Shown here: positions 23,338 through 40,129 of the stretch, one piece after another
How positions within the stretch are numbered: the stretch's first letter is position 1
Layout of the letters: the number at the start of each line of letters is the position of its first letter
Source of the DNA: Gemmatimonadaceae bacterium
GTDB taxonomy: Bacteria; Gemmatimonadota; Gemmatimonadetes; Gemmatimonadales; Gemmatimonadaceae
Assembly (NCBI GenBank): GCA_045803545.1
Contig: JBJMOW010000004.1
Coordinates: 992,001 to 1,056,000, forward strand
DNA: 64,000 nt
Direction of reading: 5' to 3'
Notes under the pieces: model-generated
Told to the model about the DNA's origin: nothing
The model's database searches: none
Seen by the model: the letters and a program-made list of their open reading frames with translations, nothing else
Position numbers and translations under genes: made by a program

Positions 23338-23366
23338 TTGCCTTCGGTATATATTCGGTATACTAT
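23338..23366 (+). promoter_or_regulatory. imuA promoter with TTCGG-N6-TTCGG direct-repeat operator
   Basis: TTGCCT (23338-43), 17 bp spacer, TACTAT (23361-66); TTCGG at 23343 and 23354. Confidence 0.75.
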
Positions 23367-23375
23367 AGCAGAGCT

Positions 23376-24065
23376 ATGTCCGATCGCAACGCCGCCCTCC
23401 GCGCACTCATCGAGCATCGATTTCCTGATGCAACACCGGTCACCCACCGGACCGCGGAGCCGGTGGCAACCGGGATCAGCGCGCTCGATGGAATTCTACC
23501 AGGACATGGCTTGCCGCGCGGAAGACTCACGGTCTGGATGCCGCAAGGTGGAGCAACTGCGGTACTGAGAGCGGCGTGTAACACCACCGTCGCACAGGGT
23601 GAGCGCGCAGTCTGGATCGATGGACTCGGCACTGTTGCCGGACCGTTCTGGGAAGAAGGCACGATCCTGGTTCGTCCAAAGACACGCAAACATGGATTGC
23701 GTGGCGCCGAAGAACTTCTGCGCTGTGGTGGATTCGCGCTCGTCGTCATCGCCGGCATCGAGCCGGAAGGAACGGAGACAGTTCGCCTCTCTCGTGCCGC
23801 GCGCGAAGGAGGAGGTGCGCTCGTCACTCTGACATCGCACGCCTCGATGGCCAGTTTGCGCATGACGTCGAAGATCCTACGCGAGACTTATCGCTGGAAA
23901 AAAACTCCATTCGGTGATCCAGCCGAAGCGCAGGAAGTGATGCTGCGCGTCCGCGCCTTCTCCCTCGGCTGGAACAAGAGCGCGGATTTCCCCGTACGGG
24001 TCATACCATATGACGTCCGCGACTCTTTGGAAGCGGGCCTCGTCGATCGACGGGGTGTCCGCTGA
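23376..24065 (+). CDS. imuA: ImuA-like RecA-fold mutasome accessory protein
   Basis: ATGISALDGILPGHGLPRGRL, AVWIDG, AEELLRCGGFALVVI and RLSRAAREGG motifs with a degenerate P-loop; imuB and dnaE2 in the same window. Confidence 0.8.
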   Translation: MSDRNAALRALIEHRFPDATPVTHRTAEPVATGISALDGILPGHGLPRGRLTVWMPQGGATAVLRAACNTTVAQGERAVWIDGLGTVAGPFWEEGTILVRPKTRKHGLRGAEELLRCGGFALVVIAGIEPEGTETVRLSRAAREGGGALVTLTSHASMASLRMTSKILRETYRWKKTPFGDPAEAQEVMLRVRAFSLGWNKSADFPVRVIPYDVRDSLEAGLVDRRGVR

Positions 24066-24069
24066 CTGA

Positions 24070-24194
24070 GGATTGAGGCGTTCGGACCAACAGCCAGTGC
24101 GGAGTCCGGATTAAGTGAGGAATTCGGAAAAGTTCTCTCACCTCAATTATTCCGAAATCCGCCGGTCTGGCAGTTTGTCCGAACGCCTCAATCC
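24070..24194. repeat. 125-bp imperfect inverted repeat
   Basis: Perfect 18-bp outer arms GGATTGAGGCGTTCGGAC (24070-87) / GTCCGAACGCCTCAATCC (24177-94); pairing continues inward with mismatches. Confidence 0.85.
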
Positions 24195-24234
24195 GCACCC
24201 AAGCCCGGAGTCCTCGCCTCCACCGAACGGTTTA

Positions 24235-24810
24235 ATGGATCTCCGTGTCGAAGGTAGTAAGCATGGTCGTGACGATCAGCGAGTGAACGAAGCGGAGCTT
24301 ATCGCCCGAATCATCGACGGAGATAGGCTGGCCGGGCGGGCGCTGTACGACATGCACGCACCCCGGGTGTTCTCGCTCGCTTATCGAATGAGTGGTGACG
24401 CAGAGAAGGCGCGGGAGTTTACGCAGGATGCATTCATCCGAGCGTTCTCGAGGTTGTCGCAGTTTCGCGGCGAAGCCGCTTTCTCAACGTGGCTGCACCG
24501 CATCGTCGTCACGGTCGTGTCGAATGCACGACGCAACGAGGTACGGTTTGGGCGCGAAGTAGCGCTGGACGAGGCTCACTCGATCGAATCCACCGCGGCG
24601 GAAGCCGAGCCCGACTTGAAGGAATCGATAGAGAGGGCGGTGAACAACCTGTCGGAAGCTTATCGCACCACGCTGATACTGCACGACGTTGAGGGATATA
24701 CCCACGCGGAAATAGCCGTCATGCTCGGTGTCCCCGAGGGGACCTGCAAGAGCCGGCTTTCTGTGGCAAGAGCGCAGCTGAGAGAAGCACTGGCTGCATT
24801 CAAGGAGTAG
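24235..24810 (+). CDS. ECF sigma factor
   Basis: Region 2 TQDAFIRAF...FSTWLHRI and region 4 EGYTHAEIAVMLGVPEGTCKSRL. Start 24235 (ATG) or 24283 (GTG). Confidence 0.92.
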   Translation: MDLRVEGSKHGRDDQRVNEAELIARIIDGDRLAGRALYDMHAPRVFSLAYRMSGDAEKAREFTQDAFIRAFSRLSQFRGEAAFSTWLHRIVVTVVSNARRNEVRFGREVALDEAHSIESTAAEAEPDLKESIERAVNNLSEAYRTTLILHDVEGYTHAEIAVMLGVPEGTCKSRLSVARAQLREALAAFKE

Positions 24811-24814
24811 GACG

Positions 24815-25447
24815 ATGGACGAAGATCGTTTCGAAGAGGTGATTCGCGATTTGCCGCGGAGCTTCAACGCTCCGCCGCCGCCTCCACTCGACGAGATGTG
24901 GGGCGTGATCGAGGACGCTCACTTCAATTCGCCACAATCGAAATCGACATCGCGTAGCAGTTTTCTGACGACGCCGTGGCTTGCCGCTGCAACGTTGCTC
25001 GTCGGTATTGGTATTGGTGCGTTATTCCCGCGAGCCAAGCCGCCAGCGACGGTTCAGGCTCCCGTCGCACAGAGCGCCCTTCCGCGAGAGACATCGGCGG
25101 TCGCGGACGTGTATCGCGATCAGACTCAACAGTACCTCGGCCAGGCTGCAGCGCTTCTCATTTCTCTGCCGGCGAGGGACGGAAGCAAGACCGCTGATTC
25201 AGCGTTTGCCAACAAGGCCGCCGATCTTCTCGTCACGACGCGACTGCTGATCGATTCACCCGCGGCATCGCGCGATGTCAAACTGCGTTCGCTGCTCGAC
25301 GATCTGGAGTTGGTGCTGGTTCAGATCGCGCGCCTCCGTAACGAGCGTTCGCGCAGTGATCTCGATCTGATTCATCAGGCAGTCGAGCAGGGAGACGTGC
25401 TGTCACGCCTCAACTCCGCAGTCGCCACAACTCAATCCTCCGAGTGA
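24815..25447 (+). CDS. Putative membrane-anchored anti-sigma factor
   Basis: Directly follows the ECF sigma; short N-terminal domain, single TM (WLAAATLLVGIGIG), helical C-domain. Confidence 0.6.
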   Translation: MDEDRFEEVIRDLPRSFNAPPPPPLDEMWGVIEDAHFNSPQSKSTSRSSFLTTPWLAAATLLVGIGIGALFPRAKPPATVQAPVAQSALPRETSAVADVYRDQTQQYLGQAAALLISLPARDGSKTADSAFANKAADLLVTTRLLIDSPAASRDVKLRSLLDDLELVLVQIARLRNERSRSDLDLIHQAVEQGDVLSRLNSAVATTQSSE

Positions 25448-27222
25448 GAACCAGGATGACCAGAGCCACTCTTATCGCTGCAGCTTTCGTTTGCGCGCTG
25501 CCGCTTGCGGCGCAAAACCCGACTCCCGCGCCGCCGGCACCACCCGCGCCTGCCGCCCCGCCTGCTGATATCGACATCGAGATGCCGGACTTGCCCGACA
25601 TGCCGGACATCCCCGATATGCCGGACATCCCGGATATGCCGGACATCCCGGATATGCCGGACATGCCCCTGCTTGCACCAATGCTCATGGACCTGGATCT
25701 GATCGGACCAGCGTTGGCGCCTCTCGGCGCGCTCTCCGACATCGATTTCGATTTCGAGATGCCGGAAATGCCCGAGATCCCTGACATGCCCGGTGTACCG
25801 TACAGTCCCGACATCCCACCGATGGCGTTGGCTCCGCGCATTGCGATGCCGGCGGTGCCGATGATCGCAATGCGACCAGCTGTGCCAGGTGTAACGCCCC
25901 TCATCGCGATTACTCCCGCGGCAAGCATTGGCTGGCAATCCCGATTCGACCAGGCATTCAGCGGCATCACCTCCAATCCGCCCGAGTCGTGGGCGCAAAC
26001 AGACCCCGCCGATTCGCTTTATAGACTGGCGCGTACTGCGCTGAATCGAGGCGAGTATCGCCGTGCCGCCGATCTCTTCGGCCAGATCAGTCAGAAATTT
26101 CCGAACTCGGTTTATGCTTCCGACGCCCGATACTGGCGTGCCTTCGCGCTCTACCGAATCGGCGGACACGACGATTTGCGCGTCGCACTCGTTTCACTGC
26201 AGGACAGTGGGCGTGGGTTTCGTCAGCAATCGCTCCAGACTGACGCGCCGGTTCTCGCGGCAAGAATTCGTGGGGCACTCGCGCGTGACGGAGACGAAAG
26301 CGCTCGACAGGCGCTCCAGACCGCTGCCACCCAACCTGGCGTGTGCGATCGTGAAGATCTCGCCGTTCGCGTGGAGGCGCTTAACTCGCTCGGTCAGACA
26401 GACCCGGAGTCAACCACTCCGATTCTGCGCCGTGTTCTCGCCCGCCGCGACGACTGCTCGGCGGCTCTTCGTCGCGCCGCGCTGTACCTGCTTGGGCGTC
26501 GCACTGACGACGAAGCGCGCGATCTCATCATCTCCGCCGCGCGCAACGATCCCGACATTCAAGTCCGCGCCGATGCCCTTCGTTTTCTGGCCGCGATGCC
26601 GGGCGATCAGCCGATCGCCACAATTGAAGAGATGGTGCGCACTCCCGGCAATGAGCAGCTCCAACGCGCGGCGATCGCCGCGCTTGGCAGAAGCGATAGC
26701 CCCCGCGCCCGTCAGAGTCTGCACAACGTAATCGAGCGCACCGATCTCTCGGAGAGCCTGCGCGCCACTGCGCTCTTGAGCGTCAGCGCGGATCGCTCGG
26801 GGGACAACGGAGCCTACTTACGATCGATCTACCCGCGGCTCGACACCCCACGGCTGAAAGGAGAGGCGATTCGCGCGATCGCGCGGATCGGCGGCAACGA
26901 CAACGATCAGTTTCTGCTCTCGATAGTTCGCAATCAGAGCGAATCACCTGATGTGAGAGCGACCGCCCTGCGCTCGGTTGGCCGGTCTACTATCTCGATC
27001 GCGGATCTGTCGAAAATGTACGACGCAGCAGATGACCGTCGGCTGCGCGAGCAGCTGATCGGACTGTTCGCTCAGCGAGACGACCCGCAGGCGACGGACA
27101 AACTCCTCGAGATCGCGCGCAACGGAACCGATCCCGATATGCGCCGCTACGCCATTTCCGCTCTGTCGCGCAAGAATGATCCGCGCACCAAGAAGCTCTT
27201 ACTGGAGATCATCGACAAATGA
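25444..27222 (+). CDS. Secreted HEAT repeat protein with Pro/Asp/Met-rich linker and TPR-like segment
   Basis: Signal peptide (LAA-Q); (MPDIPD)n; YRRAADLF...ARYWRAFALY TPR-like region; HEAT repeats. Confidence 0.8.
   Translation: MRTRMTRATLIAAAFVCALPLAAQNPTPAPPAPPAPAAPPADIDIEMPDLPDMPDIPDMPDIPDMPDIPDMPDMPLLAPMLMDLDLIGPALAPLGALSDIDFDFEMPEMPEIPDMPGVPYSPDIPPMALAPRIAMPAVPMIAMRPAVPGVTPLIAITPAASIGWQSRFDQAFSGITSNPPESWAQTDPADSLYRLARTALNRGEYRRAADLFGQISQKFPNSVYASDARYWRAFALYRIGGHDDLRVALVSLQDSGRGFRQQSLQTDAPVLAARIRGALARDGDESARQALQTAATQPGVCDREDLAVRVEALNSLGQTDPESTTPILRRVLARRDDCSAALRRAALYLLGRRTDDEARDLIISAARNDPDIQVRADALRFLAAMPGDQPIATIEEMVRTPGNEQLQRAAIAALGRSDSPRARQSLHNVIERTDLSESLRATALLSVSADRSGDNGAYLRSIYPRLDTPRLKGEAIRAIARIGGNDNDQFLLSIVRNQSESPDVRATALRSVGRSTISIADLSKMYDAADDRRLREQLIGLFAQRDDPQATDKLLEIARNGTDPDMRRYAISALSRKNDPRTKKLLLEIIDK
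25582..25668 (+). repeat. Coding tandem repeat (9/18-bp period) encoding MPD(I/L/M)PD
   Basis: atgccggacatcccggat units. Confidence 0.85.
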
Positions 27223-28487
27223 CTGTCAGCCGTTTCGTAGCGATCGCGGTCGCTGGCGCGATCGTCGGCACCAGCGCGTCAGCGCAATCTCTGGCCAACC
27301 GCGTCGCGTCAGCGTCCGATCGTTCAGTGCAGTTCACCTACAAGGCGCGGCCGGGTGTATGCGGCGACGGTCGCACTTATATCTCCACTGGCCCGGGAAA
27401 CTTCTATGGCTTCAATTCGAGCGACAGGGCTGACCAGTGTCAGGCCGGTCCCGTGCGCGTGGTGGTCGACCTCGCCGACAGAAACGTTGTCGCGCTGCGC
27501 ACGTACGTCGGCATTCCGTCCACCGGCCTCGACGCGAGCGTTTCGAACCTCGGCAACGTAACTCCAACGGATGCCGCTGACTTCCTGCTGGGCGTAGCTG
27601 GGCGGGCCGATGGTCGCATCGGGCGCGACGCGATCTTTGCCGCGCTGCTTGGCGACAGTGTCGACGTCAGCTCGCGATTACTGACGATTGGCCGCGACGG
27701 CAATCGTCCATTGGAGACTCGTCGAGCCGCTCTCGCCGGCCTGGCGCGTACGGATTCGCGCCAGCTCGATGCGATTGGCTCGTCGCTCGTCCAGATCGCT
27801 ACCAACGAGAGCGATGTCCAGGGTGCGCGTGAGGAGGCGCTTCGAGTTCTGTCGAGACTCGATCACGGAGCCGGCATCCAGCCGCTGATTCGTCTTGCCA
27901 ACAGCAACGCGACTTCATGGATTGGTCGGGAGAGCATGCGTGTACTCGCGTCTTCGGGCGATCCGCGTGCCCGGGATTTTCTGCGCGCGACGGTGCAGCG
28001 CACTGACGTCCCCGATGAATTGCTTGCGTCGGCGATTCGTGGTCTCGGCCGCAACTATGTCACCGGACAGGATGCGACTTTGCTGCGCTCGCTTTATCCA
28101 AAGGTCACCGGAGATAAATCACGCGACGCCATCCTGGCGTCGCTAGCGAACCTGGGCGGCGCTGACAACGTGCAATGGCTCACCGATGTCGTCCGGAACG
28201 AGCAGCTTTCGCCTGACGCTCGTCGCCGAGCGCTTGTCTATCTCACCCGCGCCGGCGCGCCGACGCCCACGCTGGTTGCGCTCTACGATCCGCTCACCGA
28301 CTCACAGTTGCGTGGCGAGTTGATCAGCATCTACTCGCGCGCGGGCGACAAGTCAGCGACCGACAAACTCGTCTGGATTGCGCGCAATGAGCAGAACTAT
28401 CAGTTGAAGCGACGCGCGATCGGTGCGCTGTCGCGGAATTCAGATCCCGCGATCAGGCAGGCGCTGCAGGGTATTGTCGAGCGTTAA
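27219..28487 (+). CDS. Secreted HEAT repeat protein
   Basis: Signal peptide ASA-Q; N-terminal domain with two Cys; HEAT repeats; C-terminus resembles that of the upstream protein (ATDKL..IARN). Confidence 0.8.
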   Translation: MTVSRFVAIAVAGAIVGTSASAQSLANRVASASDRSVQFTYKARPGVCGDGRTYISTGPGNFYGFNSSDRADQCQAGPVRVVVDLADRNVVALRTYVGIPSTGLDASVSNLGNVTPTDAADFLLGVAGRADGRIGRDAIFAALLGDSVDVSSRLLTIGRDGNRPLETRRAALAGLARTDSRQLDAIGSSLVQIATNESDVQGAREEALRVLSRLDHGAGIQPLIRLANSNATSWIGRESMRVLASSGDPRARDFLRATVQRTDVPDELLASAIRGLGRNYVTGQDATLLRSLYPKVTGDKSRDAILASLANLGGADNVQWLTDVVRNEQLSPDARRRALVYLTRAGAPTPTLVALYDPLTDSQLRGELISIYSRAGDKSATDKLVWIARNEQNYQLKRRAIGALSRNSDPAIRQALQGIVER

Positions 28488-29080
28488 CCGGCGATCCGCC
28501 GGCGCTTGGCTGTAACTTCGGTATTCTCGACGAGGCGTGGAGCACTCCACGTCTTGTCGAGGACTTTCTGGAAGCAGCGCTTCGGAATGATCTCGACGCC
28601 CGATTTGGCGAGGGTGTCGTAGCGGGCCAGCTTCTCGGGGTAGCGCGAGATCGTGCAAGCCTTGTAGCCAAGCGACAGGAAGAAATTGTCGGTGAGGCTC
28701 AGCGCGAAAACTTCTTCGATGTCGCGCGCGCGAGCGAGCCGCTCGACGCCCAGCACCACCTGAGTGCCCAATCCCTTGCCGTGCTGGGTTGGCGATACGG
28801 CCACTGAGGATACCTCGGCCAGCGAGGGCGAATACTCCTCGAGCGCCGCGCAGGCGAGCACGCGACCGGCAGCGTCCGTTGCAACGACGTAGTTGTCGAT
28901 GCGCGAAGCGATCTGGTCCAGGGTGCGTGGCAGCATCAGCCCCTGAGCCGCGTACGGGGACACGAGCTCGAGGATCTGGGCCGCATCCGCCCGCGCTGCC
29001 CGGCGCACGATCTGCTGGGCCGGCTTGCGGCGATCAGAAAGCCCCCGGAGAGGCTTGGCTGCACTTGGGATTTTATGCAC
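28484..29080 (-). CDS. GNAT acetyltransferase, short ArgA-like
   Basis: GLMLPRT, LAEVSSVAV..HGKGLG, FF.SLGY and PEK motifs. Confidence 0.75.
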   Translation of the reverse strand: MHKIPSAAKPLRGLSDRRKPAQQIVRRAARADAAQILELVSPYAAQGLMLPRTLDQIASRIDNYVVATDAAGRVLACAALEEYSPSLAEVSSVAVSPTQHGKGLGTQVVLGVERLARARDIEEVFALSLTDNFFLSLGYKACTISRYPEKLARYDTLAKSGVEIIPKRCFQKVLDKTWSAPRLVENTEVTAKRRRIAG

Positions 29081-29143
29081 GAAGAATGTATATATACACA
29101 GCCTTCGTGGCGCAAGAGTTTGAGGGAGGACTTGGACTGATAA

Positions 29144-29316
29144 CTACCGCGCTCGTAGCTGATAGCAGCAGGCTGTTAGCTGATGGCTGCCTGCAACCAG
29201 ACAGATCCCATAGAATAAAAGCGAGCAGAACGCTGTGCCTCTACGTTGTCGCGATCTGTCCCGTCGCCTGCAGCGAATAGCTATTAGCTAGCTGCTATCA
29301 GCTACCCGCGAGGTAG
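29144..29316. repeat. About 170-bp inverted-repeat element
   Basis: GTAGCTGATAGCAGC (29155-69) / GCTGCTATCAGCTAC (29291-305) perfect arms; inner GACAGATC/GATCTGTC pair. Confidence 0.8.
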
Positions 29317-29338
29317 TGCGCTTTCAATGTCCGCGGTC

Positions 29339-29803
29339 CTAGTAGCTGGCGAACACCCGGTTCTTCCCATTCCGATCGAATGCGATGACCTGGTAGTGCT
29401 GCTTCATCGCTCCTTCCATCCCCGGTGATCCCATCGGCATTCCGGGAACAGCCAGCCCCTTCACCGCGGGCTTCGCTGCGAGCAATCGGTCGATGTCCGC
29501 TGCCGGCACGTGCCCCTCAATGAGGTAGCCCTCGACAACGGCTGTATGACACGATCTCAGATCGGGCGGTACGCCAAGCGTGGCTTTGATCTGCGCCATG
29601 TCGGGCGTGTCCTTGGCATCCACGCGGTAGCCGTGCTTGATGAGATGCTCGATCCAGTTTTTGCAGCAGCCGCAGCTCGGATCTTTGTAAACCGTGATCG
29701 TGGGTTTTTTCGGAGCAACCACGGTCGGTGCCGCAGCGGTCGTAACGGTCAGGGCAGCGGCGCAAACCGCGACCGCGAATAAGCTGAATGAGCGCTTGGT
29801 CAT
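29339..29803 (-). CDS. DUF411 metal-binding protein, secreted
   Basis: KDPSCGCC, SCHTA, IEGHVPA, LAVPGMPMGSPGM; ATG overlaps the upstream stop (ATGA). Confidence 0.92.
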   Translation of the reverse strand: MTKRSFSLFAVAVCAAALTVTTAAAPTVVAPKKPTITVYKDPSCGCCKNWIEHLIKHGYRVDAKDTPDMAQIKATLGVPPDLRSCHTAVVEGYLIEGHVPAADIDRLLAAKPAVKGLAVPGMPMGSPGMEGAMKQHYQVIAFDRNGKNRVFASY

Positions 29804-30339
29804 TGAGGCAGGGATTTGAGTGTGCGTTCGATTTGTTTGCGGTGTCGCGCTTCGTGGTGGCCGACGAAAATTAGCCACTGATACAGATCGAGCTCGCCAA
29901 GTACGATGTGGGTGTGCTTGATGTCGCCGATCGCCAACCCATCAGCAGAGACGACCGCCGACCGTAAAGCTTCACGCGAGGTCTCCAGTCCGTCGATTGC
30001 TTCATTGATGTCGACGTCGGTTCGTGGCTGAACGAGAGTGGGCGCCTGGAGTAATCCGGATTCCAGCTTGGCTGCGTGAGAGTCGAACGATCGCATTACC
30101 GACGATGTCGATGTTTCGTCCCGAAGGCCTTCTTCGCGCGCCTTCGCCACACGCTTGGTGATAAGGCGCGCGACACCCGACTCCACCATCCGCAGATGTT
30201 CGAGGATCTCCGCGACGGACCAGCCGCTTGGATCCGCTCGTTGGCAAAGTCTTGTGCCGGAGACGCCGGCGAAGCTGTTGAGCAGCTCGCGTCGCTTCTC
30301 CTCCACATAACTCATCGTTTCGGCGAGTCTGGGGTGCAC
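29800..30339 (-). CDS. DinB family protein
   Basis: WSVAEILEHL and HEARH metal-binding histidines. Confidence 0.88.
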   Translation of the reverse strand: MHPRLAETMSYVEEKRRELLNSFAGVSGTRLCQRADPSGWSVAEILEHLRMVESGVARLITKRVAKAREEGLRDETSTSSVMRSFDSHAAKLESGLLQAPTLVQPRTDVDINEAIDGLETSREALRSAVVSADGLAIGDIKHTHIVLGELDLYQWLIFVGHHEARHRKQIERTLKSLPQ

Positions 30340-30361
30340 GTTTCTAATGTAGTCATGGGGC

Positions 30362-30390
30362 TTGGCTTCGGGTTATATTCGGTATATAAT
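30362..30390 (+). promoter_or_regulatory. imuB promoter with TTCGG-N6-TTCGG direct-repeat operator
   Basis: TTGGCT (30362-67), 17 bp spacer, TATAAT (30385-90); TTCGG at 30367 and 30378. Confidence 0.8.
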
Positions 30391-30413
30391 TGATCCCCCC
30401 GCTTCGCTCTGCA

Positions 30414-31784
30414 ATGTTTATCTGCCTCTGGACTCCCGCTGCTTTTCCTGCTCTCCCGCTCTTCGCTGAGGAGGGAGTCGTCCAGGAGAGCGAGCTGCTC
30501 AATGAGCTGGTTCCGGAGCTCCTCAACGTCGCACCGCGCGTCACGATCGGCTCGAGAGGAGTTGTGTGGGCAGATGCCCGCGGACTAGATGCCGAGCTCC
30601 TCGCCAACGATCTTCTCGATGTCTTCCATCGACATGTTCCATCCTGCCTCCCGCCTCCCGCCTCCCGCCTCCCGCTTCCCGCGAGAGCGGCGATCTCGCT
30701 CGTACCAATCACCGCGGAAGTGGCAGCACTGCATGGCAACGGTGGGCTAGTCAGGATCCCGGTCGGCACCGAGCGGGAATTTCTGGCGCCGTTTCCGATC
30801 GGAGTGCTCGAAGCATCGCCGTTTCTGGCGTCGCTGCTCGATGGAATCGGAGTCGAGCGCTGTGCCGATCTGGCGAAGCTCGATCTGGAATCGATCGAGG
30901 TCCGGTTCGGCGCCGAAGGCGCCAATCTCTGGAGATTGGCGAGAGCCGACGACACGCGTCGCATCTTCAAGACGGTGCCGCGTGCGCTGCCGACTGCTTC
31001 GCTCGACTGGCTGGATTACACTCTGCGCGACGCCGAGCGTCTCGTCTTCATCATTAACTCGCTCGTCGGCAACATCACCACCGAGCTCAAGTCGCGCGGG
31101 CAATGTGCGCGTGAGATGACGTTGGTATTCTCGCTGGCAAACCGTGAGACCCTCGAGCAGCTGGTGCGCCCGGCGCGGTCCACGGCGAGCCACAAAGCGT
31201 GGATGAGATTGATGCGCTCGCACCTGGAGCGACTCTCTCTGCCCGACGGTGTCGTCGGCATTACCGTTCGCGTCGAGTCGGTAACCGGTGAGGTCGAGAA
31301 ACAGGGCGACATCTTCGATCGCGGCTTCGGCACCGCGCGCGCGGCCGAGGAGACCATCGCGCAGCTCCTCGATGACCAGGGCGCGGTGGTCGTCACGCCA
31401 CGAAATTCACAGCATCCGTTGATCGACCGCCGCACCGAGTGGGTCACTCAGGAGCCATCCCAGGCATCGGCGCGCATTCAGCTGCGGGAGCGAGTGGTGA
31501 AAGCGACGGCGGCCCCGCGTCTGACGCTGCAATTATTGCCAGAACCCAAGAGAGTGGCGGTAACGACACGCCGTCGTCGCGATCACGACATGCCGATCCA
31601 GTATCGCGACAAAGAGTGGGCAACTCTCGTCTCCGCCGCCGGTCCCGATCGTGTGTCAGGTGGCCAATGGACCGAGCCCTACGCGCGCGAATATTTCCGC
31701 TGCGTCACTGATGACGGAATGATGGTCTGGCTATTCCGCGATGCGCGCGATAGCGAGTGGTATTTGCACGGCTGGTGGGATTAA
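30414..31784 (+). CDS. imuB: ImuB-like inactive Y-family polymerase
   Basis: Y-family thumb-like region (LDGIGVERCADLAKL...RFG); QGDIF clamp-like motif; C-terminal GPDRVSGGQW...REYFRC...WYLHGWWD; no intact catalytic palm motifs. Confidence 0.85.
   Translation: MFICLWTPAAFPALPLFAEEGVVQESELLNELVPELLNVAPRVTIGSRGVVWADARGLDAELLANDLLDVFHRHVPSCLPPPASRLPLPARAAISLVPITAEVAALHGNGGLVRIPVGTEREFLAPFPIGVLEASPFLASLLDGIGVERCADLAKLDLESIEVRFGAEGANLWRLARADDTRRIFKTVPRALPTASLDWLDYTLRDAERLVFIINSLVGNITTELKSRGQCAREMTLVFSLANRETLEQLVRPARSTASHKAWMRLMRSHLERLSLPDGVVGITVRVESVTGEVEKQGDIFDRGFGTARAAEETIAQLLDDQGAVVVTPRNSQHPLIDRRTEWVTQEPSQASARIQLRERVVKATAAPRLTLQLLPEPKRVAVTTRRRRDHDMPIQYRDKEWATLVSAAGPDRVSGGQWTEPYAREYFRCVTDDGMMVWLFRDARDSEWYLHGWWD
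30646..30680 (+). repeat. Heptamer tandem repeat (GCCTCCC)4-GCTTCCC inside imuB
   Basis: Five consecutive 7-bp units read directly from the sequence. Confidence 0.9.
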
Positions 31785-31825
31785 TTACTCAGAACTGCGC
31801 GCTGCTAGCCAACGAATCAGTCCCA

Positions 31826-31930
31826 GCTGCGAGCTAAGACCGAAATTCGAACCTATTGCGAGTTAAGAGCAAACGCTCCATCCAAGCTCGTACCTCGCAC
31901 TGGGCTCGCAAATCGGACTCAGATCGCACC
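31826..31930. repeat. Degenerate inverted-repeat element with TGCGAG/CTCGCA units
   Basis: gctgcgagct...ttgcgagtt ... ctcgca...gggctcgcaa...agatcgcacc. Confidence 0.5.
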
Positions 31931-31950
31931 TCGGATTCACCCGTATTGCA

Positions 31951-33972
31951 ATGAAGCGTCTCCTCCTACTTCTGCTTCTTACAGTTCCCAGCGTCGCGAG
32001 CGTCGCGAGCGCTCGGGTTGTTCGTGTAGAGATTCTTTCTCGCTCCCCAATCTCCGGCGCCTTCGATGGCAGAACGTACGAGCGCATAACAGGCCGCGTG
32101 TACTTCGCCTTCGATCCCAACAATACCGAGAACAAAAAAATCGTCGACCTCGCCCTCGCTCCGCGTAACGCCACGGGCGAAGTCGAAGCCATCAGCGAGT
32201 TCGTCATGCTGAAGCCAATCGGCTCCGCACAGTCGGCGAACGTCGCTGTGATCGACATCGTGAATCGCGGCGGCATCACTCATTTCATCTTCAATCTCGG
32301 CCGCAAACCCCAGGCGGCGCCGGAATCGGGCGAGTTCTACGGCGATGCATTGCTGATGAAACGTGGTGTCACCATCGTCGCACTCGGCTGGCAATGGGAT
32401 GTTCAACCAGGCGGATCGGCGCTTCACTTCCAGGCACCGCCCGTTGGTTCAGCAGCAAATCCGATAACGGGTCTCGTTCGCAGTGACATCACTGTCGATG
32501 CGCCGACGAGCTCGATTCCACTCGGACACAGCCTCGCCACCGGAGCACTCGCGTATCCTGTCGCCGATCCTGACGATCCAGCCAATGCTCTCACGGTTCG
32601 CGACTCGCCCACCGGCACTCGCTCCATTGTGCCACACAGCCGTTGGCGTTTCGGACGCGAAGCGAACGGCCAGGTCATTGATGATCCGCGCTCAGTGTAC
32701 ATGGCGAGCGGCTTCCAGCCGGGAAAGATCTATGAAGTGGTTTATCGCGGCCGCGATCCGGTAGTCGTTGGCGCCGGCCTCGCCGCAGTGCGCGACATGA
32801 TTTCCTATCTCAAGTACGACCCCAGCTCCATCGCGCCGGTCCAATACGGTATCGGCTACGGCGTCTCGCAGACGGGACGATTCATTCGCCACTTCCTCTA
32901 TCAGGGATTCAACGCCGACGAAAACGGGCGAGCGGCGTTCGACGGATTTTTCGTGCACACCGCCGGCGCCGGTCGCGGCAGTTTCAATCATCGTTTCGCG
33001 CAGCCATCCCGTGACGCGCAGCCGTACTCGACGTTTTTCTATCCGACCGACGTTTTCCCTTTCACCACTCTGCCGACCCGCGACCCGGTAACCGGTCAGC
33101 GCGCCGGCCTCCGCGACAACCTTGCCGGGTCGGAGGAGACGAAAGTTTTTTACGTTGATGGCGGACATGAGTACTGGGGACGTGCCGCATCCCTGACGCA
33201 TACGACTCCCGACGGCACACGCGACGTCGGCTTTTTGCCGACGGAGCGGCGTTACGTTATTTCGTCGGCGCAGCACTCCAGCCCAGCCGGGTGGCCATTG
33301 CCTGATTCGGATCGCATCGCCGGCACCATTGCCTACCGAGGCGATCCACTCGATCAGCGTCTGGCGCTGCGCGCGCTGATGTCCGCTCTGATCGACTGGG
33401 TGACCATGGCGAAAGAGCCGCCCGCGTCGCGCTACCCAACGCTCGCCTCACACACCCTGGTCGCCCCACAGGCTCAGACATTTCCTCGCATACCTGATCT
33501 CTCCGTCGCCCGAATTCCTCATCAGGTCTACAGGATGGATTTCGGTCCGCGCTGGAATCAGGGAATAGTCGATCTGGAGCCGCCAAAGCTGGGCGCACAT
33601 TACCCGATTTTGGTGTCGCGTGTCGATTCGATTGGCAACGACGTCGGCGGAATTCGCAGCGTCGAGATCGCAGTACCCCTCGCTACTTACTACCCTTGGC
33701 TGCTGCGCACCGGGATGCCGGCAGGGACCGACCGCCTCGTCAGCTTCCGCGGGACCTTCGTACCACTGCAGAAAACTGAAGCTGTGCGACGGAAAAGCGG
33801 CGACTCTCGCCCAAGCATCGAGACGTTGTACGGTGACAAGACTCGATTCATGGGCAGGGTCAATGCAGCGATCTCTTCGTTGATCGCGCAGCGCTTCATG
33901 CTGCCAGAGGATGCTGTCGTCGCCCGAGCGCGAATGTCCGACGTCTGGGATCGCTTCGGACCCGCGAAGTAG
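31951..33972 (+). CDS. Secreted alpha/beta-hydrolase domain protein (Abhydrolase_10-like)
   Basis: Signal peptide; GVSQTGRF nucleophile elbow; EYWGRAASL; DSIGNDVGGIR. Confidence 0.8.
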   Translation: MKRLLLLLLLTVPSVASVASARVVRVEILSRSPISGAFDGRTYERITGRVYFAFDPNNTENKKIVDLALAPRNATGEVEAISEFVMLKPIGSAQSANVAVIDIVNRGGITHFIFNLGRKPQAAPESGEFYGDALLMKRGVTIVALGWQWDVQPGGSALHFQAPPVGSAANPITGLVRSDITVDAPTSSIPLGHSLATGALAYPVADPDDPANALTVRDSPTGTRSIVPHSRWRFGREANGQVIDDPRSVYMASGFQPGKIYEVVYRGRDPVVVGAGLAAVRDMISYLKYDPSSIAPVQYGIGYGVSQTGRFIRHFLYQGFNADENGRAAFDGFFVHTAGAGRGSFNHRFAQPSRDAQPYSTFFYPTDVFPFTTLPTRDPVTGQRAGLRDNLAGSEETKVFYVDGGHEYWGRAASLTHTTPDGTRDVGFLPTERRYVISSAQHSSPAGWPLPDSDRIAGTIAYRGDPLDQRLALRALMSALIDWVTMAKEPPASRYPTLASHTLVAPQAQTFPRIPDLSVARIPHQVYRMDFGPRWNQGIVDLEPPKLGAHYPILVSRVDSIGNDVGGIRSVEIAVPLATYYPWLLRTGMPAGTDRLVSFRGTFVPLQKTEAVRRKSGDSRPSIETLYGDKTRFMGRVNAAISSLIAQRFMLPEDAVVARARMSDVWDRFGPAK

Positions 33973-36243
33973 CTAGCTGACTCCCGGAAAATCAATGCGG
34001 GCGGCCTTCGCGATTGCGCGCACGCGATTCATGATCTTGTCGGCCATCTTCGTGTCCCCCTGATTGCGTACCGCTTCTGCCAGAATGGCGCCGGTAAACG
34101 CGTACGTATAGGGAATGCCGAATGAGGGGCGGTCGATCCAGTCGCCTTCCTTGATCAAAGCTTCCGGCGCTTTGTACACGGTGTCCCAGAGTTCCTTGGT
34201 GCGCTGCACATCGAGATTGAGCCCCGCCGCCACCAGGGGAACCTGCGGGCTGTTCACGACCGGATGATCGACGAGCTTTTGCACAAACCCCTGGGTGACC
34301 AGGTACGGCTGCAGGAGTGGGCCAAGCGTTGTCCCGCCACCACCTGTCGACACGTAGATCGGCCGCTCGGGGAACGCGTCCTTGATCAAACGCAAAAATA
34401 CCAGCTCATCTCGAACGAGATAGCCCTGCGGGATCTCCAGGCTGAGATTGCCCTGTCGGAAAATCTGCGGCTGGGTGATCTGAATGTACTCGGGAATCGC
34501 GTCCGCTTCGGCGAAAGACATCTTTAGCGGCGGCCCGGACGGCTTCTTCCACTGTTGTCCGCGGAAGATTGCCGGACCCTTGGCCGCATCGTACGTCTCG
34601 ACCGGTCGGCGAATCATCTGTCGCACGAACCAGTCGGTGTCGAGATAAGTCGTGACTGCCACAGTCACATCGCGACGGACTCCTTCAACTTCCTGAGCGT
34701 ACCACAAGGGGAAGGTGTCGTTGTCGCCATTGGTGATGACAATCGCGTATGGCTCGAGTGAGTTGAGATAGTCGGTCGCCCACTCGCGTGTGAACTGGTG
34801 GCCCGAACGCGACGCGTATTTCCAATTGGCGACAAACGGAATCAGCGCGATCAGCAGAATCGGAGCTGCAAGTTTGAACGCGCGCGGCGACGGCCACGCG
34901 AACGAGGCGACCTTGCCCTTACCGGTTTTCTCCTCTACCGCCGCCGGCTCGCGATCGAGAATCTGCGCCAGCTGCTCCCACAGGAAGCCCAATCCGACCG
35001 CCGCCCACACGCCCCACGCCGAGAAGCTCCAGATGTAGAAGTAGTCTCGGTCGCGAACCTCGCGTGCGACGCTATTTCCAAGCTCCGGCGCCTGCGACCA
35101 CCCGTACTTGAAGTTCAGATAGTAAACAAGCGCCAGCGTCATCGTGAACATCAGCGGACCGAAATACCAGAACGTTTTTCGATCTCGTTGCCAATGCACC
35201 CATCCACCGAGCAGTCCGAGCCCGAGGAAGACAAAGGCGAGAATGAACTGCAGACCCTGCATCACCTGGTGTGCGTCGCGCAGCCACTGCCACTTGAAGT
35301 ACAGCCACCACATTCCGACCTGACTGGTGTAGGGCGCACCTCGCTCGACCTTCTCACCGTACTGAACGCGGTTGATGTTGTCCATCAGTCGCTTCTCGGT
35401 GAGTTTGCTGAACGTGCAGCTCGCTGCGATCTTCGTCTCGCACGCCGTGGGCGCGCCTTCATTGATTGCAGGGAAGTACGCGGCGCGAATCGGCTCGAAC
35501 GCAAAAGTCGTCAGCCCGAGTAGAAGGGCACCGACCGAGGCGAGAATCAGTCTCCAGCGCATCAGCGTGCGCCACTTGGTGGCCAGCAACGCCACGCCGG
35601 CAGCCGGCAGCGGGAGGAATCCCGCCGGGTGGTTGGCGTACCCGAGTCCGAGCAGGAAGCAGACGAGAACGATGTAGCGATCGGCTTTGCGCGAGTTGGG
35701 CGCTTCGATCCACTCGATTACCAGCCACGACACAATCGTGAAGAACAGCAGCGAGATGGTGTACACCTTCTCGTTCACCACCGACTGATTCCAGACGGTG
35801 AATGCAGTCGCGCCAATCAACGTCGCCAGACTCGCGATCACCAGGCGCTCCCAGCGCTCGGGAACCCAACGCGCGACGATGCGCTCCGTAATCAGGAACC
35901 AGAGGCCCGCCGAGATTGCGCTCGCCAGCGCAGCCATGATGTTGATCTTCTCGGCGTACGAGACCGGAATCGGCAGCGAAGCAAATGCGTGACCGAGAAT
36001 GACGAAGAACGGATTTCCGGGCGGATGCGGAATGCCGAGGACTTTGACGGCAGCCATGTACTCGCCGGTGTCCCACATCGCCACCGACGGCGCCAACGTG
36101 ATCAGGTAAAGAACGAATACGAGACCTGCGGCGATTGCCGCGGGAACGTAAGACGGCCGATAGCCGCTCTCAGCTAGCAGTGTACGCTTCGGCGCAGGCG
36201 CGTAGGTCGCGTTGACCCGGTTCGATGAGACTTGTGTTGCCAT
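33973..36243 (-). CDS. DUF2723 multi-TM protein (TMEM260-like GT-C glycosyltransferase)
   Basis: WDTGEY, GIPHPPGNP, REVRDRDYFY, GDNDTFPLWYAQEVEG motifs. Confidence 0.85.
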   Translation of the reverse strand: MATQVSSNRVNATYAPAPKRTLLAESGYRPSYVPAAIAAGLVFVLYLITLAPSVAMWDTGEYMAAVKVLGIPHPPGNPFFVILGHAFASLPIPVSYAEKINIMAALASAISAGLWFLITERIVARWVPERWERLVIASLATLIGATAFTVWNQSVVNEKVYTISLLFFTIVSWLVIEWIEAPNSRKADRYIVLVCFLLGLGYANHPAGFLPLPAAGVALLATKWRTLMRWRLILASVGALLLGLTTFAFEPIRAAYFPAINEGAPTACETKIAASCTFSKLTEKRLMDNINRVQYGEKVERGAPYTSQVGMWWLYFKWQWLRDAHQVMQGLQFILAFVFLGLGLLGGWVHWQRDRKTFWYFGPLMFTMTLALVYYLNFKYGWSQAPELGNSVAREVRDRDYFYIWSFSAWGVWAAVGLGFLWEQLAQILDREPAAVEEKTGKGKVASFAWPSPRAFKLAAPILLIALIPFVANWKYASRSGHQFTREWATDYLNSLEPYAIVITNGDNDTFPLWYAQEVEGVRRDVTVAVTTYLDTDWFVRQMIRRPVETYDAAKGPAIFRGQQWKKPSGPPLKMSFAEADAIPEYIQITQPQIFRQGNLSLEIPQGYLVRDELVFLRLIKDAFPERPIYVSTGGGGTTLGPLLQPYLVTQGFVQKLVDHPVVNSPQVPLVAAGLNLDVQRTKELWDTVYKAPEALIKEGDWIDRPSFGIPYTYAFTGAILAEAVRNQGDTKMADKIMNRVRAIAKAARIDFPGVS

Positions 36244-36247
36244 CTAG

Positions 36248-36304
36248 AGTAAGGATTTGCTGTGGAATTCTCGACAGTAAGGATTTGCTGGTGGAATTCT
36301 CGAC
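36248..36304. repeat. Tandem duplication of 28/29 bp
   Basis: agtaaggatttgctgtggaattctcgac + agtaaggatttgctggtggaattctcgac. Confidence 0.9.
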
Positions 36305-36336
36305 TGAATTTTAGTCACTAAACGTCGGGCGTGCGG

Positions 36337-36858
36337 TCATCGGCACGTAAGCTCGCGACGAGAAATGATCACCCGGGTTACCTGGGATGAATTGTGTACG
36401 AAACACGCCCGTCCTTTTCTGAAAGTCAGCCCGCGAGCCGGCGTTCCGACACCAATTCCGTTCGACGTACGAAATGCAGGACTCGAGCTGCCAACGGTCT
36501 CGATCAGACTGTCCTTTCCTGCGACGGTGAAGACGATCAATCCGCCGGTTACTGATACTCCGAATACCGGTCCCTGGATCGCTACCGATCCAGGGACCTT
36601 GATGACTGCCACTCGGCAACGCTGCCGAAGTCGCCTCAGTGGCGTACTCACAGTGACCGGCCCGATGCTGGCCGCAGTGATGAGCACCCCTGTGGGCTCG
36701 AGGCAGGCCTGGTCGCTGATCGCAACCGGATCGCCGTGTGAGAAGACGTCCGGCGAGAGCTTGGCCACGTCGTTTGCCTTCGCCGCCTCCCCGTCCGTAC
36801 AGCCCCCAACCGTCGACAGGCCCATAATTACCGTAAGGACTTTCCTATAGCTCGGCAT
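36337..36858 (-). CDS. Hypothetical lipoprotein
   Basis: Signal with GGC; FRTSNGIGVGT motif; GGGG RBS-like run upstream. Confidence 0.6.
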   Translation of the reverse strand: MPSYRKVLTVIMGLSTVGGCTDGEAAKANDVAKLSPDVFSHGDPVAISDQACLEPTGVLITAASIGPVTVSTPLRRLRQRCRVAVIKVPGSVAIQGPVFGVSVTGGLIVFTVAGKDSLIETVGSSSPAFRTSNGIGVGTPARGLTFRKGRACFVHNSSQVTRVIISRRELTCR

Positions 36859-36952
36859 CGCCCCCCAACTCGCAGACCCCGCGCCGAGAACCGCGCCGCT
36901 GGCCCCGGACCGGCGGGCACTAGTCGCTGCAAGTCGTTTTCAGTTGACGGTT

Positions 36953-36968
36953 TTCGGTATATATTCGG
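36953..36968 (+). promoter_or_regulatory. TTCGG-N6-TTCGG direct-repeat operator upstream of dnaE2
   Basis: TTCGGTATATATTCGG, identical to the imuA site, ending 2 nt before ATG 36971; contains TATATT -10-like hexamer. Confidence 0.8.
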
Positions 36969-36970
36969 GT

Positions 36971-39900
36971 ATGGGATTTGTTGAGCTTCGTGCCCATACC
37001 GCCTTTTCGTTCGGCGACGGCGGCACCTCACCCGAGGCGCTTGCTGCCCGTGCTGCATCACTCGGCTACCGTGCGCTGGGCATAACCGATACGGCCGATC
37101 TGGGCGGCATCGTTCGATTTTGTCTGGAAGCGAGACGAGTCGGGCTGAAAGCGATTGTTGGCGCCGAGCTCAATATCGATGGCTGTCCCGTCGCCTTTCT
37201 GGCGCAGAACAAAACCGGGTTCAACAACATCGCCTCGCTTGTAACGAGGTCGCGAGTTGGCGAGCTATCGACGTGGCAGAAAGGAGACGGCAAGAAAACG
37301 CGGGGTCGGCCGCGACTATCGTGGCAACAGGTAGCTGAGCGGAGCGAAGGAGTGCAGGTGCTGACCGGCCCGCTCACGGGTCCGGTCGCATCTCACCTCC
37401 GCAACGGCGAGTATCGTGAAGCGGAACACACGCTGTGCCGGTGGCGATCCGTTTTTGGTGAGCGACTCGCCGTCGAAGTGCAGCTGCATCACGCCAGCGG
37501 TACCGAAGCCGCGCTCGGTGCTGCCTTGATCGAGCTGGCCGAGCGACACAACGTGCCGTGGGTCATCTGCCACGAGCCGCGCTACATCGACAACGGCACG
37601 CGACTCGTCCACGATGTTCTGACATCGCTGCGCTACGATGCGACCATCGACGACGCTGTCGCGCGCGGACTACTACATCCAAATGGTGAGTGGCGTCTCG
37701 TCTCGGCCGAGGAGATGGGTCAGCGATGGAAAGGTCGCGAGCAAGGACTCGAGGAGAGTGAGCGCATCGCCGACGAGTGCGATTTCAATCTCTCATGGGT
37801 TCGTCCGCCTCTGCCAAAGTTTCCTGTTCCGCCCGGTTACGACGACGACACCTTCCTGCACGAGAAAGCTTTCGAGGGTGCGCGTGAGCGTTGGGGCGAA
37901 CTCGACCAAAAGCAAATCGATCAGCTGAACCACGAGCTGCGGGTGATCGGTAATCTCGGCTTCGCGGGATTTTTCCTCGTGATGTGGGACGCGGTGCATT
38001 TCGCCAAGTCGAAAGGGATTCTCTGCCAGGGTCGCGGCAGCGCCGCCAACTCGGCGGTGGCTTATTGTCTCGCGATCACGGCGGTAGATCCGGTTCGGCA
38101 TGGTCTGCTGTTCGAGCGATTTCTCTCGGAGATCCGCGTCGATGGGCAGACTGAAGCGCCGGACATCGATGTCGACATCGAGCACGATCGCCGAGAGGAA
38201 GTGCTCGACTATGTCTATGGGAAGTACAATCGCGCGCAGGCGGCGATCACCTGCGTCGTGCAGATGTACCGCGGGCCGAATGCAATTCGCGATTCAATGC
38301 GCGCCTTCGGTTATCCGGTGGAGATGGCGAACAACATCTCCAAGCGCATCCATTGGAGCGATCCTGCCGAAGGGGCGAAGTACGTGGAGCAGGAGCTCGC
38401 GCCAAAGCTCGGCATCGATTTCGACAATCCGCGTGGACGTGCGACGCTGGCAGCGATGGCAGCGTTCGAAGGAGTGCCGCGTCTGCGCTCGACGCACGTC
38501 GGTGGCTTCGTACTCTCGTCTGCTCTGCTCGGCGATTACATGCCCGTCGAGCACACGACGATGGGTCGCACAATCATCCAGTTCGACAAAGATGATCTCG
38601 ATGCGGTCGGAGTTCCCAAGTTCGATTTTCTGGGACTCGGTGCGCTGTCGCTGGTGAGACGCGCGTTCGACATGATCGAGGTACGCACGGGAACGCGGCC
38701 GGAGATGTACAGGCTGCCGCCCGACGATGAGAAAACCTACGAGCTGATCGCGAGCGGTGAGACGATTGGCACCTTCCAGATCGAGAGTCGAGCGCAGATC
38801 GCTTCAGTGTTGCACACGAAGCCCGATCGGTTATACGACATCGTCGTGCAGGTGGCGCTGATTCGTCCCGGTCCGATCCAGGCAAACTTCGTCCATCCAT
38901 ATACTGCGCGCCGTCGCGGACTCGAGCCGGTGACGTATCAGCATCCCGATCTGGAGCCGATTCTCAAGAGGACGCAGGGCATTCCGATTTTCCAGGAGCA
39001 GGCGATGGCGATCGCGATGAAGCTCGGTGGTTACTCGGCGGCTCAGGCCGACGAGCTGCGCCGCACCATGGGACACATCAGAAAAGTCGAGAAACTGCAC
39101 CGCGTGCTCGAACAGCTCCGACAGCGCATGGTTGAGCGCGGAGTCACTGAAGATGTCGCGACCAGGATCGCCGAGGATCTAAAGAGCTTCGCGAATTATG
39201 GATTCCCGGAGTCGCACGCCTGGAGCTTCGCACTGATCGCTTACGCGACGGGTTATCTCAAGGCTCACTATACGGCGGAGTTCTACGCCGGATTGCTGAA
39301 TTCTTATCCGATGGGATTCTATCCGCCGTCGACATTGATACATGATGCTCGCCGCCACGGTTTACAAGTCTTGCCGCCTTGCATGCGCGATGGCGACTGG
39401 GAATGCACCACCGAGCCGACTGACAATCCTGACCGCCCCGCGCTCAGAATCGGCTGGCGCCACATCCGCGGACTCGGCGAGAAATCACTCGACGCGCTCA
39501 AGGCAGCGAGAGGGTGGGATCGATTCTCTTCGATCGACGATGTCATCGACAGAGCAAAGCTCCAGCGCACTGATGCACTGCAGCTGGCGCGCGCCGGCGC
39601 TTTCGCGTGCTGGGAGCCTGATCGACGTCGCGCGGCATGGGTGGCAATGCGGGCGGTGGGAGATTGTCTACCGCTGGCGCCGGCGCGTCATGTACCGTAC
39701 GAGCCGCGTCCGCTGACGCGAGACGAGCTGATCTTCCTCGACTATTTCTCGGTCGGCATCAGCGTCAGCGGGCATCCCATGGAGCATCTGCGCGACGAGC
39801 TGCGCGGCAAGGGCGTACTCGATTCCAAACAGCTACTGAAGCTGAAGGGCGGGGAATGGATCAAGACTGCCGGCCTCGTCACCATCCGCCAGCAGCCGCA

Positions 39901-40129
39901 GAGCGCAAAAGGAACTGTATTTCTGCTGATGGAGGATGAGTTCGGCTTCATCAACGTCATCGTCTCGAAGAAGATGGTCGAGGAGTACGCGGAGGTAGTG
40001 AGGTTCTCGACCTTCGTGCTGGTAGAAGGGAAGTTCGAGCGCGACGACGGCGTGCGGAACGTCATCGGCAGGAAATTCAGTGAGCTCGAGGTGAAGGAGC
40101 TGGTTCATGCCTCCAGGGACTTTCATTAG
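36971..40129 (+). CDS. dnaE2: Error-prone DNA polymerase III alpha paralogue (ImuC)
   Basis: PHP domain, GRGSAANS, PDIDVD, FQIESRAQ, YGFPESHA, OB fold and C-terminal SRDFH signature of DnaE2. Confidence 0.96.
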   Translation: MGFVELRAHTAFSFGDGGTSPEALAARAASLGYRALGITDTADLGGIVRFCLEARRVGLKAIVGAELNIDGCPVAFLAQNKTGFNNIASLVTRSRVGELSTWQKGDGKKTRGRPRLSWQQVAERSEGVQVLTGPLTGPVASHLRNGEYREAEHTLCRWRSVFGERLAVEVQLHHASGTEAALGAALIELAERHNVPWVICHEPRYIDNGTRLVHDVLTSLRYDATIDDAVARGLLHPNGEWRLVSAEEMGQRWKGREQGLEESERIADECDFNLSWVRPPLPKFPVPPGYDDDTFLHEKAFEGARERWGELDQKQIDQLNHELRVIGNLGFAGFFLVMWDAVHFAKSKGILCQGRGSAANSAVAYCLAITAVDPVRHGLLFERFLSEIRVDGQTEAPDIDVDIEHDRREEVLDYVYGKYNRAQAAITCVVQMYRGPNAIRDSMRAFGYPVEMANNISKRIHWSDPAEGAKYVEQELAPKLGIDFDNPRGRATLAAMAAFEGVPRLRSTHVGGFVLSSALLGDYMPVEHTTMGRTIIQFDKDDLDAVGVPKFDFLGLGALSLVRRAFDMIEVRTGTRPEMYRLPPDDEKTYELIASGETIGTFQIESRAQIASVLHTKPDRLYDIVVQVALIRPGPIQANFVHPYTARRRGLEPVTYQHPDLEPILKRTQGIPIFQEQAMAIAMKLGGYSAAQADELRRTMGHIRKVEKLHRVLEQLRQRMVERGVTEDVATRIAEDLKSFANYGFPESHAWSFALIAYATGYLKAHYTAEFYAGLLNSYPMGFYPPSTLIHDARRHGLQVLPPCMRDGDWECTTEPTDNPDRPALRIGWRHIRGLGEKSLDALKAARGWDRFSSIDDVIDRAKLQRTDALQLARAGAFACWEPDRRRAAWVAMRAVGDCLPLAPARHVPYEPRPLTRDELIFLDYFSVGISVSGHPMEHLRDELRGKGVLDSKQLLKLKGGEWIKTAGLVTIRQQPQSAKGTVFLLMEDEFGFINVIVSKKMVEEYAEVVRFSTFVLVEGKFERDDGVRNVIGRKFSELEVKELVHASRDFH

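Follow-up and report, generated by a model that had tools for sequence, protein, structure and literature searches.

In a 64-kb stretch of the genome of a Gemmatimonadaceae bacterium (C2:992001-1056000; "the window" below), an imuA-like gene, an imuB-like gene and dnaE2 lie well apart from one another, and each is preceded by a copy of the direct repeat TTCGG-N6-TTCGG. The comparisons described below make it highly probable that the repeat is the SOS operator bound by the canonical LexA of this organism. Canonical LexA dimers would sit head-to-tail on the half-sites, which are spaced by one helical turn, and the bound repressor would occlude RNA polymerase at the imuA-like, imuB-like and dnaE2 promoters; after DNA damage, RecA-stimulated self-cleavage of LexA would lift the repression. 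The copies found in the window are the following (scores refer to the position weight matrix, PWM, described further on).

23343..23358, plus strand: operator copy 1, TTCGGTATATATTCGG; exact match between the two hexamers of the imuA-like promoter; PWM score second-highest in the genome
30367..30382, plus strand: operator copy 2, TTCGGGTTATATTCGG; exact match in the spacer of the imuB-like promoter; third-highest PWM score
36953..36968, plus strand: operator copy 3, TTCGGTATATATTCGG; exact match overlapping the dnaE2 promoter; top PWM score in the genome

An exact-pattern search of the window returns these three copies and no other, all on the plus strand, in line with the original prediction, which had listed the same three sites and seen no further full copy. 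Dinucleotide shuffles of the window contain 0.24 copies on average (standard deviation 0.53), a figure that argues against chance occurrence, and three copies were reached in 1 of 100 shuffles. Enrichment is confined to the exact pattern: one-mismatch copies are not in excess in the window (10 versus 7.7 expected), so that loose matches carry no weight. All three sites are associated with promoter-like sequences.

23338..23366, plus strand: putative sigma-70-like promoter of the imuA-like gene; TTGCCT (23338-23343), 17 nt, TACTAT (23361-23366); read from the sequence
30362..30390, plus strand: predicted sigma-70-like promoter of imuB; TTGGCT (30362-30367), 17 nt, TATAAT (30385-30390); 10/12 matches in the promoter scan
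36937..36965, plus strand: predicted sigma-70-like promoter of dnaE2; TTTTCA, 17 nt, TATATT; 9/12 matches in the promoter scan

The threshold of the promoter scan was set at 9/12 consensus matches; the imuA-like promoter, with 8/12 by hand count, falls under it, and its CTTGnn-TTCGG...TTCGG-TAnnnT layout recurs in relatives. In both the imuA and the imuB promoter the hexamers are 17 nt apart and the last base of the -35 hexamer is the first base of the repeat, which bears out the shared register claimed for the two sites in the original prediction. At dnaE2 the -10 sequence TATATT falls within the operator, whose end is 2 nt from the ATG (36971). The same sequence, TATATTCGGGTATG, is present at dnaE2 (window 36953-36973) and at an Rv2578c-type radical S-adenosylmethionine (SAM) gene elsewhere in the genome (C2:99332-99352), and at both the ATG comes 6 nt after the in-operator TATATT. 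Such proximity of the start codon to the -10 suggests that the dnaE2 and radical SAM mRNAs are leaderless.

The search was extended to the whole genome (3.7 Mb, 60% G+C, 6 contigs). It contains 25 exact copies of TTCGG-N6-TTCGG, compared to 15.3 (standard deviation 3.9) in 12 third-order Markov simulations; thus, about 10 copies are in excess and the rest are probably due to chance. Because this excess is only mild, the case for an operator rests on the position and conservation of the sites rather than on their number. Nine of the 25 exact copies precede an SOS-type gene on the same strand, at a distance of no more than about 110 nt; besides the imuA-like, imuB-like and dnaE2 genes, the SOS-type genes with exact copies are lexA (two copies), uvrA, ruvB and the Rv2578c-type radical SAM gene. 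Sites outside the window are located as follows.

C4:165365 and C4:165393: the two lexA copies; exact matches
C4:693356: uvrA copy; exact match
C2:1099399: ruvB copy; exact match
C2:99332: copy at the Rv2578c-type radical SAM gene; exact match
C4:356482: copy upstream of recA, TTCGTATTTTGTTCGG; one mismatch

In all nine SOS-linked copies the TTCGG sequence is on the coding strand, a bias that probably reflects overlap with the -10 sequence following the second half-site. Overall, 16/25 exact copies are intergenic or at the 5' end of an open reading frame (ORF), versus 90/293 one-mismatch copies, these fractions being rough because gene calls were crude. The radical SAM class in question (COG1533, splB) is described as SOS-regulated in several species (PMC8565304). 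A PWM built only from sites of relatives gave its seven highest scores in the genome to dnaE2, imuA, imuB, the radical SAM gene, lexA site 1, ruvB and lexA site 2, in this order; uvrA ranked 15th and recA 17th.

Genes of the genome under study were called with a crude ORF search combined with a filter on third-position G+C, which covered about 85% of the genome and missed or mis-started several genes. The PWM was derived from 133 distinct sites; its core positions are circular, since the training sites were picked by the exact pattern, and only the flanks and the spacer are informative. For comparisons among relatives, 80 lexA loci were taken from named Gemmatimonadaceae and Gemmatimonadales records (LexA proteins 77-98% identical), and 30 loci each were used for imuA, imuB, recA, dnaE2 and a LexA paralogue. 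The imuA count takes in the genome under study and the unpublished genome G007 (locus L118), the recA count the unpublished genomes G007 (L240) and G034 (L237), and the paralogue promoter count the same two unpublished genomes (L196 and L211, respectively).

At least two exact copies of the repeat are found upstream of lexA in all of the 80 loci. Site 1 fills the spacer between a -35 sequence, TTGC(G/A)C, and a -10 sequence, TAnnnT; site 2 begins about 21-33 nt after site 1. No variation is seen in the half-sites, while the spacer varies freely except for a near-invariant T at position 9. Upstream of recA, a copy with no more than one mismatch is found in 30/30 loci (2 exact, 28 with one mismatch; 28/28 when G007 and G034 are left out). 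Most of these copies read TTCGTAnTTTnTTCGG and lie about 90-100 nt upstream of the start codon (range -53 to -122). With a first half-site ending in T in 28/30 relatives, TTCGTAnTTTnTTCGG has the appearance of a conserved weaker variant of the operator, which may set a different repression strength. Finally, 25/30 imuA loci have an exact copy in the 220 nt ahead of the gene (23/28 among relatives alone, without G007). The original prediction had proposed that the repeat is the damage operator of this lineage and had pointed to lexA, recA and other repair genes, here and in relatives, as the places where it should recur. Both the make-up of the putative regulon (two exact copies at lexA, exact copies at uvrA and ruvB, a one-mismatch copy at recA) and the conservation of the lexA (80/80), recA (30/30) and imuA (25/30) sites lend support to this proposal.

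Altogether, the predicted core promoters are overlapped by the repeat either in the -35/-10 spacer (imuA, imuB and lexA site 1) or over the -10 and start region (dnaE2 and lexA site 2). Overlap of this kind, together with the -10 of dnaE2 lying inside the repeat and the presence of an extracytoplasmic function (ECF) sigma factor gene after imuA, might also be expected if the repeat were itself a promoter element, for instance one recognized by that ECF sigma factor, or simply AT-rich promoter sequence shared by chance. We find this exceedingly improbable. The two lexA copies occupy different positions on one and the same promoter, one in the spacer and the other downstream of the -10; the 11-nt period of the repeat does not fit the 16-18-nt spacing of -35 and -10 sequences; and invariant half-sites around a freely varying spacer are not what a promoter element would predict.

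The genome encodes a canonical LexA protein of 202 amino acids (C4:165461-166069; TIGR00498, 206 bits versus a cut-off of 111). Solved LexA structures can be aligned with it from end to end, and the Ala-Gly cleavage site (VAAG), the serine (GNSM) and the lysine (VKK) are in register. An orthologue matching at E 1e-40 or better is present in 66/71 genomes sampled across the phylum. In other families of the same class, TTCGG-N6-TTCGG occurs twice at lexA in 6/6 loci, and residue 44 of the LexA proteins, which lies in the recognition helix (SLATVHEHL), is E, again in 6/6. In other classes of the phylum the lexA promoter carries instead TTCGC-N6-TTCG(C/T), found in 11/14 loci (in L266 the first half-site is TTCGT), eight of the 11 having two copies; here residue 44 is K (ATVHKHL) in 14/14 genomes, as opposed to E in all genomes of the TTCGG type. 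In an alignment of 12 LexA sequences of the TTCGG group with eight of the TTCGC group, four columns separate the two, and residue 44 is one of them. By alignment with the solved structures, this residue corresponds to E45 of Escherichia coli LexA, which we take to be a DNA-contacting residue. The covariation of E/K with G/C agrees with LexA being the protein that reads the half-site. In the lexA promoters of the other classes (L260-L272) the TTCGC repeat is seen inside a TTGAC...TATAAT frame, and the LexA proteins begin with MYLT.

The covariation also bears on whether some unrelated transcription factor, co-regulating repair genes as DdrO does in Deinococcus, could use the repeat as its operator, with LexA binding at some other site. 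One exact copy (C4:574586) precedes a gene for an XRE-type helix-turn-helix (HTH) protein, as might be expected of such a factor. However, a pair of conserved copies on the promoter of lexA itself is what autoregulation by LexA classically looks like, inspection by eye of the 80 lexA promoters reveals no other prominent conserved element, and it is with the recognition helix of LexA that the half-site covaries. An unrelated factor thus appears very unlikely.

Several observations nonetheless weigh against LexA control through this repeat or reduce the force of the counts given above. Taken by itself the pattern is not rare, since chance alone predicts about 15 of the 25 copies in the genome, and 9/25 exact copies fall inside ORFs by the crude gene call. 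Some high-scoring sites precede genes without a known SOS role, namely those for an F0F1-ATPase gene-1-like protein and for two unknown proteins of 306 and 174 amino acids. No exact copy is present within 220 nt upstream of imuA in 5/30 loci, and 3/14 lexA loci of other classes have no copy in the 182-250 nt examined upstream. Related genomes are not independent, so that the numbers of loci overstate their statistical weight; likewise, the E/K covariation counts as one evolutionary event, as the two states part at one split between two clades. The scores behind the imuA and imuB assignments are under the cut-offs of curated models. Lastly, the genome encodes a second LexA paralogue, of 229 amino acids (C6:218735-219421; L002:1051-1740, minus strand), which scores 166 bits against TIGR00498.

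If this paralogue, rather than canonical LexA, were the protein that binds the repeat, the latter would still be a damage-response operator. The paralogue passes the LexA model (cut-off 111) and is common in the family, with a match at E 1.5e-34 or better in 51/61 genomes. Yet none of its 30 loci has a copy of the repeat, even allowing for one mismatch, within 250 nt upstream, so that it would not be autoregulated through this element, unlike canonical lexA with its two copies in 80/80 loci. In 9/61 genomes the best match to the paralogue is no stronger than that given by canonical LexA (E 1e-23 to 1e-31), and five of these nine (G006, G014, G030, G055 and G056) retain an exact copy upstream of imuA. 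Moreover, the change from TTCGG to TTCGC tracks the recognition-helix residue of canonical LexA. We therefore regard binding by the paralogue as highly improbable and retain canonical LexA as the predicted repressor. The 30 paralogue promoters share a GTTGACC box resembling a -35 sequence, and no clear repeat common to them was found. A GTAC-N6-GTAC palindrome considered as a candidate operator of the paralogue occurs in the genome under study and in its congener G011 and is not conserved beyond the genus.

The genes under the three window operators are as follows.

23376..24065, plus strand: imuA-like gene, 229 amino acids; NCBIfam NF033429 (ImuA), E 3.2e-9, 37 bits versus a cut-off of 150
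30414..31784, plus strand: imuB-like gene, 456 amino acids; ATG at 30414, the ORF opening at a TTG at 30390; weak DNA polymerase IV matches only
36971..40129, plus strand: dnaE2, error-prone DNA polymerase, 1052 amino acids; NCBIfam NF004225, 1041 bits versus a cut-off of 939

The identity of dnaE2 can be considered secure on the strength of its model score and of its Pfam domains (DNA_pol3_alpha, finger, PHP and HHH_6). Neither the imuA-like nor the imuB-like protein has a Pfam match; the latter matches NCBIfam polymerase IV models at E of about 3e-9, far under their cut-offs, and a polymerase IV structure in the PDB at E 7e-4. Assignment of these two genes relies on synteny: in relatives, the homologues of the three genes adjoin in the order imuA, imuB, dnaE2, and this adjacency (imuB ending 3-79 nt before dnaE2 in 10 loci) supports orthology. 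In the window the cassette is not contiguous, as the three genes start at 23376, 30414 and 36971 and are separated by seven and three unrelated ORFs, respectively. The first interval comprises the ECF sigma gene, a 210-amino-acid unknown ORF, two HEAT-repeat genes, a GNAT gene, a DUF411 gene and a DinB_2 gene; the second, a hydrolase gene, a TMEM260-like gene and an ORF of unknown type. As judged from the gene order, the usual imuA-imuB-dnaE2 operon is broken in this genus into three units about 7 kb apart, with one predicted operator each.

The relatives make it possible to compare the presence of an operator ahead of dnaE2 with the position of imuB. The start of dnaE2 was within the locus in 21 of the 30 loci, and the remaining nine (L183-L191), where it lies outside, were left out.

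imuB ending 3-79 nt before dnaE2: 10 loci, none with an exact copy ahead of dnaE2
imuB ending 258-665 nt before dnaE2: 4 loci, one with an exact copy ahead of dnaE2
no imuB found upstream in the locus: 7 loci, all seven with an exact copy ahead of dnaE2, at -18 to -75

The seven loci with a detached dnaE2 include those of the genome under study and of its congener G011. A similar pattern is seen at imuB, which has an exact copy of its own within 100 nt in only three of the 30 loci (G000, G011 and G055): imuB lies apart from imuA in G000 and G055, and on another contig than imuA in G011. Of the remaining loci, 21 have their only copy 228-1401 nt upstream of imuB, in most cases about where a site preceding imuA would be expected, and 6/30 show no copy upstream. 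Thus, the operator is present wherever a mutasome gene begins its own transcription unit. We tentatively propose, with somewhat more doubt than conviction, that breakup of the operon in this genus endowed each orphaned gene with its own promoter-embedded operator almost deterministically, and that E or K at residue 44 sets the fifth base of the half-site throughout the phylum.

The alphaproteobacterial LexA box of Caulobacter and Rhodobacter is a direct repeat, GTTC-N7-GTTC (PMC8565304, PMC9578287), and the genes it is described as controlling include lexA, recA and imuA-imuB-dnaE2. The box is also reported for Acidobacterium capsulatum. The Gemmatimonadaceae element resembles it in being a direct repeat and not a palindrome, in its 11-nt period and in the TTC-N8-TTC core. 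The half-sites differ. The three window copies have C, C and T immediately ahead of TTC in their first half-sites, and A in their second ones; among distinct lexA sequences, pre-selected as exact matches to TTCGG-N6-TTCGG, G precedes the first half-site in 0/51 site-1 and 9/68 site-2 sequences. The GG following TTC, absent from the alpha consensus, is fixed by this pre-selection in the base tally; its conservation is evident from the fact that every one of the 80 lexA loci has two or more exact copies upstream. Hence, the period and architecture invoked when the original prediction likened the repeat to the alphaproteobacterial box hold, whereas the half-site is not GTTC, so that strictly speaking the element differs from the alpha motif. 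The recognition helix, SLATVHEHL, presumably resembles the Gram-positive and Thermotoga type more than the alpha type.

Another parallel is offered by the Balneolaeota, relatives within the Fibrobacteres-Chlorobi-Bacteroidetes (FCB) group, whose LexA motif, validated by electrophoretic mobility shift assays, is the direct repeat TTACACATATTTTWTACATA (PMC7739468). Among the members of its regulon are likewise lexA, recA, translesion polymerases and a gene for a radical SAM protein; the motif is longer and has a TACA-type half-site rather than TTCGG. The same source holds that LexA evolved direct-repeat recognition more than once, citing works on Patescibacteria, Acidobacterium and Verrucomicrobia (PMC7739468). 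No description of a LexA box from Gemmatimonadota, Gemmatimonadetes or Gemmatimonas turned up in a search of a limited literature collection, in keeping with the statement in the original prediction that the motif was not recognized as characterized for this group. The present finding very likely extends a known type of LexA switch, that based on direct repeats, to a little-studied phylum.

The Gemmatimonadota are widespread in soil, and few of them have been cultured. The phylum thereby gains a predicted SOS box and a predicted core regulon comprising lexA, recA, uvrA, ruvB, the mutasome genes and a radical SAM repair gene, so that its damage and mutagenesis response could be annotated from sequence alone. 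What the window itself contributes is an instance of operon fission with one operator per fragment: error-prone synthesis would have been kept under predicted damage control despite breakup of the operon. The correspondence between E/K in LexA and G/C in the half-site marks residue 44 as a candidate one-residue specificity swap. If true, the two parts of the proposal made above would amount to a readable rule of LexA recognition and to a natural experiment in regulon evolution.

Some further features of the sites and their surroundings deserve mention. An exact repeat at C2:684303 (L100, L223) sits in a promoter-like frame, CTTGT...CATAGG, ahead of three ORFs, which encode a 212-amino-acid unknown protein, a 239-amino-acid protein that weakly matches sigma-70 region 4 and HTH models, and a 230-amino-acid Peptidase_S24 protein. 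The latter would be the third S24 protein in the genome, and the group is possibly a further damage-inducible module.

Divergent from imuB, on the minus strand, lies the DinB_2-superfamily gene (window 29800-30339). No convincing minus-strand promoter was seen for it by eye; its likely ATG, at 30315, is only about 50 nt from the imuB operator, and the same site might thus affect this gene too.

In relatives (e.g. in L183-L191) the match of dnaE2 to its model is split near model position 465, although a single long open frame holds both parts. Many dnaE2 genes of the family may therefore contain an insertion, possibly an intein; dnaE2 of the genome under study is without it.

The ECF sigma gene begins 50 nt after the imuA-like gene and is followed by the 210-amino-acid ORF, which has no family match (window 24115-25447). 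A promoter and terminator scan detected no terminator-like site between the imuA-like gene and the ECF sigma gene, which might be co-transcribed with imuA under the control of the operator. A long ORF is likewise found downstream of imuA in the congener G011.

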